From: Capsulimonadales bacterium
GTDB lineage: Bacteria > Armatimonadota > Armatimonadia > Armatimonadales > Armatimonadaceae
Assembly: GCA_033762295.1 (NCBI GenBank)
Contig: JANRLW010000041.1
Span: forward strand, 1 to 32,960
DNA length: 32,960 nucleotides
Direction: 5' to 3'
Shown: positions 16,683 to 23,128 of the stretch, piece after piece
Numbering within the stretch: position 1 is the first letter of the stretch
Layout: every line of letters starts with the position of its first letter
Translations under genes and position numbers: made by a program
Notes under the pieces: generated by a model
Told to the model about the DNA's origin: nothing
What the model saw: only the letters and a program-made list of their open reading frames with translations
Database searches by the model: none

Positions 16683-17978
16683 ATGATCAACGCCTCAGGA
16701 CATAGCGCATCGCCCGGTCCACCCGATGGCCCGGAAACGCAGGACCGGGAGCAATGGACCGTCTGGATCATGCCGGTCCTGACACTGGTCATGGCCTACG
16801 GCCTGCTTTTTCTGACCTTTGCCGAAAAACTGGACCATGCGGAGGTCATGAAGCGGTGCGTTCTCAGCAACGATCAGTACGCCCGCATCTGGAGCGTCGG
16901 TAACGTCGAGATCGGACTGGCCTACCTCGGCGTCTTCGGTACGATGCTCTTCTACTTCCTGAAGATCTACCGCAACAGCGCCCTGCATTTACGGGATTTA
17001 ACCTTCGCTCTTTCCTACCTGCTCGGCAGCTTTATCCTCGACTATATCTGCGTGAAGACGTTCGAACCGTTCCCGGCGATGCTGATCGGGGACGGACTGG
17101 TGATGACGTTCACCCTGATCGTCTCCCGTCAGGTCTGGTTCCAGCGTCTGCTCGGGGTCTTCGTTCCGATGATCTTTCTGACGTGCGGCATCGGGCATTT
17201 GCTGGAAGGGCTGTCCTACTGGAAACTCACCTACGAGTGGAACGTTCCCTGGACGATGGTAACGGCGGATATCGGGTTCGCCGTTCTGGTGAACTCGTCC
17301 CGCTACCCGGCATTCATCCGGGGGGAAGACATCCTGAGCGAACTCAAGCAGGAGCGGGATCGAGCCGATCGCCTGACGCTGGAAGTGGAGGCGCGTCAGA
17401 AAGCGGAGGCGGAGAATCTCCGCCTGATGGAGGAGATCCGACAGACCACGGAGCGGCAGCGACGCTTCCTGCGGGATGTCCTGGCCAGCGTGACCGAGGG
17501 GCGTTTGCGTTATTGCGAGGTGTCGGAGGATCTGCCACCCCGACCGGACGGACCGTTCTATCGAACACCGCTCGACTCGGCGGAACGCCTGCGCGAATTG
17601 CGACGCGAAATCATCGAACTGATGCGCGTCAACGGTTTTTCCGAGGAGCGCATCGAGGAGGCGCAGATGGCGGCGCAGGAGGGTGCCATGAACGCCCTGG
17701 TACACGGTCAGGACGGACAGGCGGCGGTCTATCTGGTGGAGAACGAGGCCGGGCCGCACGTTCAGGTCTGGGTGGAGGACCGCGGACGAGGAATCGATAT
17801 GGAGAACCTTCCGCGTGCGACGCTGGAACCCGGGTTCAGTTCGGCGGGAACGCTCGGGCAGGGCTTCAAACTGATGCTTCGTACCGCCGACACGGTCTGG
17901 ATTCGCACCAACCGCAACGGGACGACGGTCGTCATCGAAAAAGGCCGGGAACCGCGTCCGAACCCGCTGCTCTCCTGA
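16683..17978 (+). CDS. Membrane sensor (ethylene-receptor-like domain) fused to an RsbT/RsbW-like HATPase_c kinase
   Basis: About 6 hydrophobic helices with IGLAY and FLTCGIGH motifs; a coiled coil; EGAMNALVHG (N box), VEDRGRGI (G1), GFSSAGTLGQGF (G2). No HisKA H-box seen. Confidence 0.8.
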   Translation: MINASGHSASPGPPDGPETQDREQWTVWIMPVLTLVMAYGLLFLTFAEKLDHAEVMKRCVLSNDQYARIWSVGNVEIGLAYLGVFGTMLFYFLKIYRNSALHLRDLTFALSYLLGSFILDYICVKTFEPFPAMLIGDGLVMTFTLIVSRQVWFQRLLGVFVPMIFLTCGIGHLLEGLSYWKLTYEWNVPWTMVTADIGFAVLVNSSRYPAFIRGEDILSELKQERDRADRLTLEVEARQKAEAENLRLMEEIRQTTERQRRFLRDVLASVTEGRLRYCEVSEDLPPRPDGPFYRTPLDSAERLRELRREIIELMRVNGFSEERIEEAQMAAQEGAMNALVHGQDGQAAVYLVENEAGPHVQVWVEDRGRGIDMENLPRATLEPGFSSAGTLGQGFKLMLRTADTVWIRTNRNGTTVVIEKGREPRPNPLLS

Positions 17979-19696: not shown

Positions 19697-22600
19697 ATGA
19701 AAAGCATGAACTTACCCGATCGATATCCCGCTCGTCTCTCTTCGACAATGGGGTTTTTGGCCCTCCTGCCGTTGCTCGCCGGCTGTCCCGGCGGCAACGG
19801 GAGCGGTAACGGCGGGACCACGATATCCGCCGGTTCGCCGAAATATGCCGAACTGGCCGGGGCGTTTTCCCGCGCCGTCGTCGCCCTGGAAGTCGACGGC
19901 CAGCAGGCGGCGGACTGGGTGCCGCAGGTAACGACGATCGCACCCGACGAGCCCGCCGGTTGGGCCAATCTCGGCCTGTTCCAGCTGCGAAAGGGGCGAC
20001 CGGAGGAGGCGATCGTCAGCCTCAACAAGGCGCAGCAACTGGCCCCGCAAAACAGTGTCATCCTGGCCAACCTCGGACTGGCCGAGACGCGCCGGGGGAA
20101 TTTCGTCGAAGCGATCGCCGCCCTGCGCAAAGCGATCGCCATCGACCCGAACGACGTCCGCGCGATGTATGCTCTTTACAAGGCGATCGAACAGCAGGGC
20201 GGGGCGGACGCCGGGACCGAAGGCGACAAACTGCTGGCCGCGATCCTGGAGAAACAACCCGGGAACCTGGCCGCGATTCTGGAGCGGACGCGATTGGCCG
20301 CGCGCCGGGGCGATCAGGCGACCGCGCGCGCCGGGGTCGCCGCGCTGACCGAACGAAGCGCCGCCTGGCCCGCCCCTTACCGGAATCAACTGACCGCCCT
20401 GGGGAAGGCGGTGGAAGCCAACATTCGCGCCGCCGCGCCCGAAGCGATTCGGATGGGCAATTTCCTCAAGCAGACGGTGGAGTATCGGATCGGACTCCAG
20501 GCGATCGAGGGCAGCGCGACCGAAGTCGGTCAACTGGTCCGTCAGTTGATCAAGTATCCCCCGGTCGTCAGTACGCCGGCCGAGCCGGATACCGGCCTGA
20601 CGTACACGGTCGAACCGGCGGACGCGGAAGGGAAGGGCGGGTTCGTTCGCGCCGTTTTCCCGACCGGGGAGGGGACGCCGATCGTCCGCGCCGCCGCTTC
20701 GGCGTTCACGACGATCGACTTCGATTACGACTTCCAAACCGATCTCGTCTCCGTCGGAACGAACGGTCTGTCCCTGCTCCGTGGGCAGGACGGCAAGTTC
20801 GTCGATGTCACCGCGAAGATGAAACTGCCGCCGACCGTCACCAAAAAGGCCTACTCCGGAGCCTGGGTCGCCGATATCGATCTCGACGGCGATCCGGATA
20901 TCGTTCCCGGCGCGAAAGACGGAGCCGTGATCCTGCGGAACAACGGTGACGGGACCTTCAAAACCCTCCGTCCGTTCCCGGACCTGACCGGAATCACCGG
21001 ATTTGCCTGGGGCGATCTCGACAACGATGGCGATCCGGACGCGGTGGTAATCGACGGAGCCGGACGGATGCGGGTCTACTCCAACGAGCGCAACGGCCTT
21101 TTCGTCGCCCGCCCGTTGCCGGGCGGACTGGAGAACGTGGCCACGGTGACGATCGCCGATACGGATCGGGATGGCCGGTTCGATATCGTCGCGCGCAAAT
21201 CCGATGGCCGTGTTGTGGCGATCCGGGAGGAGGCCGAAGGGAAGGCGTTCGCCGTGACGGATCTCGTCCGAACGACCGCAGCGGCGGACGGCTCCGTTCT
21301 GGTGGCCGATGCGGATAACAACGGCGGTAACGACCTGATCCTGTCCGATGGCAAGGGGACGGAGGTATTCCTGTCCGACGCCCGGGGCGCGTTCCCGGCG
21401 ACGGCGACGGCGACGGTCGCTCTGGCGACGCGTGACGTGGCCGATCTCAACGGCGACGGTCGGCTCGACCTGATCGGCACGGCGAACGGACAGCCGACCC
21501 GGGCGGTGAGCAAGGGCACGAAGGAGTATGGTTATTTGGTGGTCCGGCCACGCGCCGCCGAGAAAGGAAAGGCGACCGGTGACCGACGGATCAACTCCTT
21601 CGGAATCGGCGGAGAGATCGCCGTCCGCTCCGGACTGGTGACGCAGAAGCAGAGAATCGAGGCCCCGGTCGTGCATTTCGGTCTTGGCGAGGGAAAACAG
21701 GCGCAGTATGTCCGGATCGTCTGGCCCAATGGCTACGTACAGGGAGAATTCGATACCGACGCCAGAACGCGGAAGCCGATCGATGCCGGAATGACTCTGG
21801 TGGCCGAACAGCGCCTGGTCACCTCCTGTCCTTTCCTGTTCGCCTGGGATGGCGAACGGATGTCCTTCGTCACCGACTGTATCTGGCGGTCGCCGCTCGG
21901 CCTGAAGATCAATGCGCAGGGGACCTCCGATGTCGCCATGACCGAGGACTGGGTCAAAATCCGGGGCGACCAGTTGAAACCGCGCAACGATGAAGAGGGG
22001 CGTCCGTACTACGATCTGCGAATCACCGCCGACCTCTGGGAAACGCACTTCTTCGACCACCTCGCGCTGATGACCGTGGACCATCCGAAGGGAACCGATA
22101 TCTGGGTGGACGAGCGATTCGCGATTCCACCGCCGCCGCTGTCGGTCATCGTCACGCGACCGCCGACCCCGGTGAAGGCCACGGCCGATACCGGCGAGGA
22201 TATGACCGGGACGATCCGGGCGCGAGACGGGGTTCATGCCGACTATTTCGGACGGGGCAAGTACCAGGGAGTCACACGGGATCATGCCCTGACACTGGAC
22301 CTCGGCAAAGCGGCGACCGTCGGGACCGGACCGCTCTATCTGATCGCCAACGGATGGATTCATCCGACCAACAGCTCGATCAATGTCGCGCTCTCCCAGG
22401 GCGGCGACACGCCGCCGACCGGTCTGTCGCTGGAGGTGCCGGACGGAAAAGGCGGCTGGAAGACGGCGAAGGCCGGCCTGGGTTTCCCGACCGGCAAGGT
22501 CAAGACGGTCGTTCTGCGGGTGGATGATATCCTGAAGGGCGGAACCCGGCTGCGCCTGCGGACCAATCTGGAGATTTTCTGGGACAGCATCGGTGTGGCG

Positions 22601-23128
22601 CGCGGCGTCCCGAATGCACCGGTCGGGAAGATGAAACAGGTGGCCGGAACCGCCGAACTGGGGTACCGGGGTTTCACGACCATCACCGCCGTCGATAAAT
22701 CCTCCCCCGAACTGCCCGTGGGCTACGAACCGGTCGTCAGTCGACGGCAGCGGTGGCGCAGTCTCGAAGGGTTCCACACCCGGTTCGGGGATGTCCGTGA
22801 ACTGCTGACCCGGATCGACGACCGGTACATCATCATGGGACCGGGGGACGAGATCCGGATGCGCTTCGCCGTTCCCCCGCCGCCTAAACCGGGGTACGTC
22901 CGGGACTTCATCCTGATCGGTGACGGATGGGTCAAGGATGGCGACCTGAACACGACGTTCTCCAAAACCGTCCTGCCCTTACCGACGCATGCCGATCCGA
23001 AATACGATCGCCGTCCGACAACGCTGGAAGAGGACCCGGTCTATCGGAAGCGCCGGAGCGACTGGGAGACGTTTCACACACGGTTTGTGTCGACCGAGGA
23101 ATTTCGGGACACACTGTGGGAGAAATAG
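19697..23128 (+). CDS. Large lipoprotein with TPR repeats, FG-GAP/VCBS repeats and an ASPIC/UnbV (CRTAC1-like) domain
   Basis: Lipobox LLAGC; TPR helices (WANLGL, LANLGL, AIAALRKAIAIDP); repeated DxDxDGxxD motifs; NSFGIGG..HFGLG..IVWPNG; C-terminal extension beginning SCPFLFAWDG. Confidence 0.88.
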   Translation: MKSMNLPDRYPARLSSTMGFLALLPLLAGCPGGNGSGNGGTTISAGSPKYAELAGAFSRAVVALEVDGQQAADWVPQVTTIAPDEPAGWANLGLFQLRKGRPEEAIVSLNKAQQLAPQNSVILANLGLAETRRGNFVEAIAALRKAIAIDPNDVRAMYALYKAIEQQGGADAGTEGDKLLAAILEKQPGNLAAILERTRLAARRGDQATARAGVAALTERSAAWPAPYRNQLTALGKAVEANIRAAAPEAIRMGNFLKQTVEYRIGLQAIEGSATEVGQLVRQLIKYPPVVSTPAEPDTGLTYTVEPADAEGKGGFVRAVFPTGEGTPIVRAAASAFTTIDFDYDFQTDLVSVGTNGLSLLRGQDGKFVDVTAKMKLPPTVTKKAYSGAWVADIDLDGDPDIVPGAKDGAVILRNNGDGTFKTLRPFPDLTGITGFAWGDLDNDGDPDAVVIDGAGRMRVYSNERNGLFVARPLPGGLENVATVTIADTDRDGRFDIVARKSDGRVVAIREEAEGKAFAVTDLVRTTAAADGSVLVADADNNGGNDLILSDGKGTEVFLSDARGAFPATATATVALATRDVADLNGDGRLDLIGTANGQPTRAVSKGTKEYGYLVVRPRAAEKGKATGDRRINSFGIGGEIAVRSGLVTQKQRIEAPVVHFGLGEGKQAQYVRIVWPNGYVQGEFDTDARTRKPIDAGMTLVAEQRLVTSCPFLFAWDGERMSFVTDCIWRSPLGLKINAQGTSDVAMTEDWVKIRGDQLKPRNDEEGRPYYDLRITADLWETHFFDHLALMTVDHPKGTDIWVDERFAIPPPPLSVIVTRPPTPVKATADTGEDMTGTIRARDGVHADYFGRGKYQGVTRDHALTLDLGKAATVGTGPLYLIANGWIHPTNSSINVALSQGGDTPPTGLSLEVPDGKGGWKTAKAGLGFPTGKVKTVVLRVDDILKGGTRLRLRTNLEIFWDSIGVARGVPNAPVGKMKQVAGTAELGYRGFTTITAVDKSSPELPVGYEPVVSRRQRWRSLEGFHTRFGDVRELLTRIDDRYIIMGPGDEIRMRFAVPPPPKPGYVRDFILIGDGWVKDGDLNTTFSKTVLPLPTHADPKYDRRPTTLEEDPVYRKRRSDWETFHTRFVSTEEFRDTLWEK

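Follow-up and report, generated by a model that had tools for sequence, protein, structure and literature searches.

The Armatimonadota genome assembly GCA_033762295.1 (Capsulimonadales bacterium) encodes a 431-residue protein that is probably a dimeric intramembrane receptor, with a sensor that is a six-helix offshoot of the ethylene-binding domain (Pfam ETR1_N) and an ATPase domain of the SpoIIAB/RsbW type through which it would feed a partner-switching circuit. The gene lies on contig JANRLW010000041.1, in the 32,960-nucleotide stretch analyzed here (positions 1 to 32,960, forward strand; hereafter the window). An initial annotation, made from the nucleotide sequence without database searches, had described an ethylene-receptor-like membrane sensor wired to an RsbT/RsbW-type Ser/Thr kinase. 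As a whole that reading is supported: similarity to ETR1-type domains is present, the Cys and His it singled out (C168 and H172) are conserved in the orthologs and no conserved phospho-accepting His was found, which disposes of the three objections it had raised against itself. Its wording of a metal or gas sensor still applies, while the connection to partner-switching is one that we infer.

Homology and conserved residues of the membrane half

Judged by its sequence, the membrane half is a distant relative of the copper-containing ethylene-binding domain, with a likeness beyond chance. We scanned 301 Armatimonadota genomes with the ETR1_N model, which gave a match above cut-off in 27 of them, and compared a reference profile of 25 true ETR1_N domains from those genomes with profiles of the family by hhalign. 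The 35-sequence family profile aligned to the true domains with 85.1% probability (E 6.1e-6) and the 82-sequence profile with 87.8% (E 3.4e-6, 96 columns), against 0.2-0.3% in controls that reversed either the family profile or the reference profile. When aligned alone, residues 45-100 fell on template positions 9-56 (62.5%, E 7e-5) and residues 150-215 on positions 69-107 (83.6%, E 8e-6), such that both halves find their proper, colinear ETR1_N counterparts. Residues 96-152 and 20-50, likewise aligned alone, reached 5.5% and 0.5% and have no ETR1_N counterpart. The Pfam model itself gives a weak match in all 35 aligned family members at E<=1 (best E 1.2e-4), and its sub-threshold match to the protein in the window runs from residue 147 to residue 202, covering positions 30-84 of the 97 in the profile. 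In the ESM Atlas, ETR1_N clusters make up 17 of the 30 nearest to residues 25-220, with scores of 0.90-0.92 and 192-199 shared features. The sub-threshold Pfam match, the controlled hhalign comparison and the ESM Atlas neighbors all bear out the likeness to ETR1 that had first been proposed from motifs.

Those motifs were found as quoted, namely GNVEIGLAY (73-81), LFYF (89-92), FLTCGIGH (165-172), W180 to Y184 and TMVTA (191-195), and the C168 codon does begin at 17184. The pattern H....C.L...W names the right residues, but its dots are schematic and do not give the true spacing, with H52 to C59 spanning seven residues and L61 to W70 nine. The literature describes the ETR1 ethylene-binding domain as three transmembrane helices (PMC7700396, PMC6944256), with Cys65 and His69 of helix II as copper ligands (PMC10266040). 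In our AlphaFold2 model of residues 1-225 (predicted local distance difference test, pLDDT, 87.3; predicted template modeling score 0.81) the membrane module instead comprises six long helices. The additional helices stand at the N-terminus and between the counterparts of ETR1 helices I and II (Table 1).

Table 1. Coordinates of the sensor kinase gene and its predicted parts in the window
Feature	Coordinates	Strand	Residues and description	Basis
Whole gene (P0001)	16683..17978	+	431-residue membrane sensor plus putative HATPase_c_2 kinase	Open frame
Extra N-terminal transmembrane helix	16746..16820	+	22-46; no ETR1_N counterpart	AlphaFold2; hhalign
Short helix, then Cys59	16836..16859	+	52-58 and C59; aligns with the pre-helix-I Cys of true domains	AlphaFold2; hhalign
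Counterpart of ETR1 helix I	16872..16967	+	64-95; N74=Asp25, Y81=Tyr32, F85=Pro36	hhalign
Two inserted transmembrane helices	16980..17123	+	100-126 and 129-147; between ETR1 helices I and II	AlphaFold2; hhalign insertion
Counterpart of ETR1 helix II	17151..17213	+	157-177; C168 and H172 (Cys65/His69 positions), E175	Pfam; hhalign
Counterpart of ETR1 helix III	17232..17297	+	184-205; T191=Lys91, T194/A195 = conserved TA, D196 invariant	AlphaFold2; hhalign
Long signaling helix	17343..17492	+	221-270; presumed coiled coil, His-free	AlphaFold2 (pLDDT 94.4); sequence
HATPase_c_2 domain	17580..17939	+	300-419	Pfam (51.6 bits); invariant columns in 74 relatives; Foldseek

Residue counts were compared between the 25 true domains and 82 family members (Table 2). 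Of thirteen aligned positions, seven are conserved in the true domains and in the family alike, namely the Cys ahead of helix I, the helix-I Tyr, the Cys and His of helix II, the acidic residue three positions after that His, and the Thr and Ala of helix III. The family has, in addition, invariant residues of its own (H102, D105, R155, D196 and N204) and near-invariant ones (E76, which is Glu in 81 of 82 members, C123 and D137), and H102, D105, C123 and D137 all sit on the two inserted helices. The lone deviant is P0124 (411 residues, 36% identity), in which C59, E76, Y81, C168, H172, E175 and N187 are changed together and H102, D105, R155, W180, D196 and N204 are kept. This natural 'site-dead' variant separates the two conserved sets, and the joint change of seven residues suggests that they form one functional site. 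P0124 aside, the membrane module is more conserved (50-74% identity) than the output (34-66%).

Table 2. Residues at aligned positions in true ETR1_N domains and in the family
ETR1 position	True domains	Position in the protein	Family members
Pre-helix Cys	22/25	C59	81/82
Asp25	25/25	74	Asp 0/82 (Asn 50, His 31, Thr 1)
Tyr32	25/25	Y81	81/82
Pro36	19/25	F85	Phe in 82/82
Ile62	25/25	F165	Phe in 81/82
Cys65	25/25	C168	81/82
His69	25/25	H172	81/82
Acidic at His+3	24/25	E175	81/82
Lys/Arg91	25/25 (Lys 21, Arg 4)	191	Basic 0/82 (Thr 73, Ser 5, Ala 3, Cys 1)
Thr94	25/25	T194	81/82
Ala95	25/25	A195	80/82

The initial annotation had suggested modeling a dimer around C168 and H172. Homodimer prediction for residues 20-218 scored 0.73, and the best control 0.00. 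Of 30 proteins with solved homo-pair structures, 20 attain a score of 0.73, as does 1 of 23 whose solved structure is a single chain. Three runs showed contact agreement of at least 81% and pLDDT of at least 72. In the modeled interface, residues 54-88 of one copy face residues 178-208 of the other, with C168 and E175 also included. Going by these models the protein is most likely dimeric, the score being a measure of model confidence. Across the predicted interface N74 touches T191. In the hhalign alignment these two residues stand opposite Asp25 and Lys91, a co-evolving pair in ETR1, and the contact thereby provides independent support for the register of the ETR1_N alignment.

Two further observations concern the spread of such domains. 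The nearest clusters in the ESM Atlas are small ETR1_N-type proteins (126-145 residues), whose few taxon-labeled members are mostly viruses (Uroviricota). This hints at phage-encoded, stand-alone proteins resembling the ethylene-binding domain, which the fold search of BFVD did not recover. Within Armatimonadota, a hybrid histidine kinase (L029:1237-3243, plus strand, contig C2 of genome G261) lies at the border of ETR1_N, scoring 22.7 bits with hmmscan and 27.8 bits when whole genomes were scanned. It has a C-x3-H motif in helix II and represents another divergent lineage resembling the ethylene-binding domain.

The ATPase output and its partners among sensors

The C-terminal half carries an ATPase domain of the SpoIIAB/RsbW type. 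Pfam HATPase_c_2 (PF13581) matches it with 51.6 bits against a gathering cut-off of 27.4, covering profile positions 5-126 of 127; HATPase_c is also barely over its cut-off (28.1 against 26.4 bits), and HisKA has no match in the 431 residues. The N box (E333, N337, H341), G1 box (D366, G368, G370) and G2 box (G392, G394) align with those of SpoIIAB, and all eight residues are invariant across 74 relatives. The motifs quoted for this region by the initial annotation, DRGRGI (366-371) and GFSSAGTLGQG (384-394), are present as given. H341, in the N box, is the sole invariant His among the 74 relatives; together with the absence of His from the long helix, this argues that the protein is not a cryptic histidine kinase.

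The structural comparison points the same way. For residues 220-431, AlphaFold2 with the alignment of the 74 relatives gave a model (pLDDT 94.4) in which a single 50-residue helix (221-270) runs into an alpha/beta domain, with no helical hairpin. The top Foldseek matches are SpoIIAB structures (1thn, 1tid, 1til, 1th8 and 1l0o; best E 6.5e-7, template modeling score, TM, 0.74-0.77, root-mean-square deviation, rmsd, 2.3-4.2 A), and RsbW is also matched (6m36 and 6m37, TM 0.77-0.85). Overall SpoIIAB and RsbW fit at rmsd 1.9-4.2 A, and the catalytic (CA) domains of histidine kinases rank after them, the listed chains mostly at rmsd 9-16 A. A sequence search of the PDB returned SpoIIAB and CheA only, both for the ATPase part, and the top NCBIfam matches are the anti-sigma families RsbA and SpoIIAB, both far under their cut-offs. 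An RsbT/RsbW-type output without an H-box, as first annotated, is thus what the HATPase_c_2 match and a fold closer to SpoIIAB/RsbW than to CA domains describe. SpoIIAB, RsbW and RsbT share this Pfam family and the N/G1/G2 boxes, and provide the best structural matches. However, they are small soluble proteins of about 130-160 residues encoded beside their STAS or sigma partners, whereas the domain here belongs to a 431-residue membrane receptor with no adjoining partner, possesses an extra N-terminal strand and the long helix, and scores far below the NCBIfam equivalog cut-offs.

The output module is widespread. An exhaustive search of 1.84 billion proteins yielded 1305 representatives matching the query at E<=1e-10; among the 150 of these that were listed, all except about a dozen match residues ~233-428 only, and the membrane module is present in only about a dozen 50%-identity clusters. 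A linker is conserved along with the output module (…F.RDVL.SVTEGRL.LC…DLP…). Fusions among the 74 aligned relatives bring in PAS (34), GAF (14), REC (5), DUF4118 (2), CHASE (1) and CHASE3 (1) domains.

Distribution and gene contexts

A pattern scan of 185,579 species, with one genome per species, identified 27 loci with the membrane module, all of them in Armatimonadota (Capsulimonadaceae, Armatimonadales, Armatimonadaceae and Chthonomonadales). The genome of the window holds a single copy. Capsulimonas corticalis, a relative in culture, carries P0027. The module is fused to several outputs besides HATPase_c_2: PAS and SpoIIE, i.e. a PP2C phosphatase (P0112, P0115); PAS and HisKA_2 (P0114); HisKA and HATPase_c (P0116 and L060, the latter followed by a REC gene); and PAS, HisKA, HATPase_c and REC (P0118, P0120, L058, L061). 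The true ETR1_N domains of Armatimonadota carry the same histidine-kinase outputs (HisKA, HisKA_2). Bacteria commonly shuffle sensor domains among different outputs.

The same HATPase_c_2 output and linker also follow canonical ETR1_N domains, scoring 80-87 bits, in four genomes of the window's taxonomic family, and a search with one canonical protein returned PF25487 and PF13581 together in 50 of 79 clusters. These uncharacterized proteins (L025-L028; P0266-P0314, P0320) share the output, which is 37-40% identical to the query, the linker motif (…LRD[IV]L…T.G.L.L…) and the phylum. They differ in being ~100 residues shorter and in possessing a three-helix sensor, in which L025-L028 retain Asp25, Tyr, Pro, Cys, His and Arg91 in all four cases and Ile35 in three. 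Their source names are 'anti-sigma regulatory factor (Ser/Thr protein kinase)' or 'ATP-binding protein'. The architecture had appeared undescribed to the initial annotation. For the literature covered, the main text of freely available articles, this holds: searches on ethylene receptors or their binding domain together with anti-sigma factors, partner-switching or HATPase turned up no description of such wiring. It does not hold for the databases, which already list the architecture under automatic names, and with canonical ETR1_N as well.

Among the 14 genomes of this taxonomic family, the six-helix type occurs in that of the window and in G040, the canonical type in G139, G226, G256 and G277, and both together in none. 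That the two kinases are mutually exclusive per genome fits a functional replacement, in what is a small sample of related genomes. A comparison of output-module identities gave no signal of shared whole-protein ancestry with the canonical fusions, because the values are alike throughout: 42-51% with unrelated sensors, 34-66% within the family and 37-40% with the canonical kinases.

The window's genome, which is 94.5% complete, holds candidate parts of partner-switching circuits. It encodes six small STAS proteins, five of which (on contigs C38, C58, C126, C12 and C50) bear D-S-(S/T/A)-(G/A), the canonical motif of SpoIIAA/RsbV, and four of those five have no adjoining kinase. There are also five strong SpoIIE/PP2C genes, a stand-alone RsbW-like gene, and two HsbR-like REC-PAS-SpoIIE-HATPase_c_2 genes (contig C12, L067:3989-8454; contig C132, L071:3971-8958). 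Both of the latter lie downstream of a sensor histidine kinase gene, and the one on C12 is accompanied by an additional REC gene and by an adjoining STAS gene. The genome's sole paralog of the output module (41% identity) is a kinase with three PAS domains, and its start abuts the stop of a PAS-GAF-SpoIIE gene. Pairing of kinase and PP2C genes is a signature of partner-switching, in which PP2C phosphatases act on phospho-STAS proteins. In 4 of the 27 orthologous loci (L037, L039, L046, L057) a sensor PP2C gene directly adjoins the sensor gene on the same strand.

A small STAS gene is found just downstream of the sensor gene in 7 of the 27 loci. We considered its product as a general partner and rejected it: it is without the canonical phospho-Ser, and the gene is convergent, follows flhA-flhF and is confined to one closely related subclade. 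The wider setting is a flhA (FHIPEP)-flhF operon on which the sensor gene converges in 12 of the 27 loci (L038, L041, L044, L047-L052, L059, L062 and L063; for example L041:7154-11096, minus strand). In 7 of these 12 the operon ends with the small STAS gene, where ID(H/R)xGL replaces the canonical DSSG. No ortholog of flhA, flhF or the operon STAS gene was detected in the window's genome by tblastn.

The sensor gene itself is apparently monocistronic. Upstream is a divergent DUF4349 gene on the opposite strand, and downstream a convergent ABC-transporter ATPase gene followed by that of its permease. Consensus scans for a promoter or terminator of the sensor gene gave nothing above chance. Farther out in the window are genes for a LacI regulator, a GFO/IDH/MocA oxidoreductase and, at 19697-23128 (plus strand), a 1143-residue protein, unrelated to the sensor gene, in which repeats of the TPR and FG-GAP types occur along with a weak match to ASPIC/UnbV. 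Elsewhere in the genome (contig C50, L068:3996-5539, plus strand), a canonical STAS gene lies inside an exosortase/EpsH - DUF3485 - Wzy-type polysaccharide locus, and its stop overlaps the start of a gene of the type I phosphodiesterase/nucleotide pyrophosphatase family. This locus could be a partner-switching output tied to exopolysaccharide.

Proposed mechanism, alternatives and significance

In the mechanism that we favor, the protein would function as a dimeric inner-membrane receptor. Its sensor would have branched off from the ethylene-binding domain in one lineage, and was found in these searches in Armatimonadota only. It retains the Cys/His pair that binds Cu(I) in ethylene receptors, the Tyr of helix I, the Thr-Ala of helix III and the acidic residue three positions after the His. 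The polar switch formed by Asp25 and Lys91 has been lost, and two helices have been gained, on which one His and one Asp are invariant and one Cys nearly so. A membrane-soluble or redox-active stimulus, such as a small gas, an alkene, copper status or redox state, may act at this metal-type site and shift the dimer interface between helices III and I. The shift would then pass down the ~50-residue helix to the SpoIIAB/RsbW-type ATPase domain, which would in turn bind a STAS-domain protein, or phosphorylate it on Ser; the gene of this target would lie elsewhere in the genome. Sensor PP2C phosphatases would oppose this kinase, making the receptor an input to partner-switching rather than to two-component signaling.

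Several observations weigh against this proposal. On the output side, no STAS or PP2C gene adjoins the sensor gene in the window, as the initial annotation had also remarked, nor does one occur in the neighborhoods of three canonical ETR1_N-kinase genes, and the STAS protein of the flhA-flhF loci did not qualify as a partner. The scores of the output domain with SpoIIAB (TIGR01925; 36.8 bits against an equivalog cut-off of 135) and RsbW (NF003144; 18.4 against 145) fall far below these thresholds. On the sensor side, the ETR1_N (PF25487) score of the protein is 18.4 bits (E 0.0027) and that in the genome scan 21.8 bits, both below the cut-off of 27, and neither Asp at the Asp25 position nor a basic residue at the Lys91 position occurs in any family member. 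Structure searches neither confirmed nor refuted the fold of the membrane half: Foldseek with the membrane model gave no match in BFVD at E<=0.001, VIA-align against 48,161 PDB representatives gave only generic helical bundles (best Z 7.1, which for helical proteins is within what the tool itself treats as noise), and searches of the PDB turned up no solved ETR1 transmembrane structure.

The loss of the Asp/Lys pair bears on the ligand. We tentatively suggest, as a possibility rather than an expectation, that the six-helix modules descend from the ethylene-binding domain but form a receptor class of their own, sensing within the membrane with the help of copper or another metal. In this new class the Asp-Lys switch would have been swapped for a remodeled site, to which the two added helices contribute their invariant His and Asp and their near-invariant Cys, and which would serve another small ligand or a redox signal. 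Such a class, together with the canonical ETR1_N proteins bearing HATPase_c_2, would provide the first link from this domain to sigma-factor/STAS partner-switching.

Alternatively, the protein may be a genuine ethylene receptor that differs from ETR1, SynEtr1 and AzoEtr1 in its output alone and, as they do, binds ethylene at the Cys/His Cu(I) site; we regard this as unlikely. The homology to ETR1_N and the conserved Cys, His and Tyr positions would fit it, as would the canonical domains that occupy the same output in genomes of the same family, where the two types never occur together. Three of seven ethylene-binding residues reportedly listed by Wang and colleagues in 2006 (Tyr, Cys and His) are identical in the family. 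Asp25 of ETR1 helix I is highly conserved, yet natural Asn variants exist and D25N is still functional according to PMC10266040, and Asn is the residue found here in 50 of 82 members. However, His takes this position in 31 of 82, Pro36 and Ile62 have also given way to other residues throughout or almost throughout the family, and no member has Lys91. Lys91 of helix III is the polar bridge to Asp25, with which it co-evolves, and K91M/A retains ~1% of binding (PMC10266040), while D25N lowers ethylene affinity ~100-fold (PMC11971883). With the Asp/Lys pair missing, ethylene binding at receptor-like affinity is unlikely, and a remodeled site is indicated by what the inserted helices add, namely a His and an Asp that are invariant and a Cys that is nearly so. 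By these comparisons the sensor appears to be a six-helix derivative and not a canonical ethylene-binding domain, and 'ethylene' is not implied by the relationship.

A second alternative concerns the output. The HATPase_c_2 domain could function mainly as a membrane-tethered anti-sigma factor that sequesters a sigma factor directly and releases it on signal, with no STAS step. The best structural matches do include the SpoIIAB-sigma F complex (1l0o) and UsfX, and RsbA and SpoIIAB lead the NCBIfam matches. Yet no sigma-factor gene adjoins the sensor gene in the window or recurs among the neighbors of the 27 loci, the recurring neighbors being PP2C phosphatases (4 of 27), and the invariant ATP-binding boxes suit a kinase; we therefore consider a direct tether quite unlikely.

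The homology of the sensor can also be doubted. A membrane module with no relationship to ethylene-binding domains, in which CGxxH and TA arose by convergence and which senses, for example, lipid state or envelope stress, would account for the Pfam scores below cut-off, for the lack of a structural match and for the different number of helices; moreover, the ETR1_N model produces sub-threshold matches at E<=1 in 10 of 14 control genomes. No control genome matches at E<=0.01, however, and convergence is hard to reconcile with an hhalign probability of 87.8% against 0.2-0.3% for reversed profiles, with halves that align independently and in the correct order, with seven shared positions among thirteen, with ETR1_N neighbors in the ESM Atlas, and with a predicted N74-T191 contact that mirrors the Asp25-Lys91 coupling. 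We judge it improbable. That the protein is an ordinary sensor histidine kinase with an overlooked dimerization/histidine-phosphotransfer (DHp) domain or H-box, as the HATPase_c match just above cut-off and the long helix before the ATPase domain might suggest, is scarcely credible given a His-free helix 221-270, H341 as the only invariant His, no HisKA match, no modeled hairpin, a far closer fit to SpoIIAB/RsbW (1.9-4.2 A) than to CA domains (mostly 9-16 A), and true histidine-kinase relatives that carry a recognizable HisKA.

Returning to the reading as a six-helix receptor for partner-switching, we compared the protein with characterized systems. Like ETR1 of Arabidopsis, SynEtr1 of Synechocystis and AzoEtr1 of Azospirillum, it possesses the colinear pre-helix Cys, helix-I Tyr, Cys-x3-His, acidic His+3 and Thr-Ala, a predicted dimer with the Cys in the interface, and an N-terminal sensor domain that is swapped among outputs. 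It departs from them in its six helices (one extra at the N-terminus and two between I and II), in lacking equivalents of Asp25 and Lys91 in 82 of 82 module members, in Phe at the Pro36 and Ile62 positions, in its score under the Pfam cut-off, and in its HATPase_c_2 output. Characterized ethylene receptors signal via histidine kinases, and both characterized bacterial ones are histidine-kinase based (PMC11819568).

Partner-switching systems offer the second comparison. In the HsbR/HsbA system of Pseudomonas aeruginosa, and with RsbP or RsbU in Bacillus, sensory domains (REC, PAS or hydrolase) feed a kinase or PP2C acting on a STAS protein. The sensor of the window's protein is instead an intramembrane ETR1_N-like module. 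RsbP/RsbQ is treated in PMC3183031.

In this gene and its relatives, one kind of intramembrane sensor thus serves three outputs, namely kinases of the SpoIIAB/RsbW type, PP2C phosphatases and ordinary histidine kinases, which suggests that ethylene-receptor-type sensing can feed partner-switching circuits. Armatimonadota also present a natural experiment on the binding site, in which one lineage carries two forms of the sensor on the same output: the canonical one of three helices, where the Asp/Lys(Arg) pair is present, and the six-helix one, where Cys/His is kept and the pair replaced. The two would form a tractable system in which to study what determines the choice of ligand and how a signal is passed out of the membrane.

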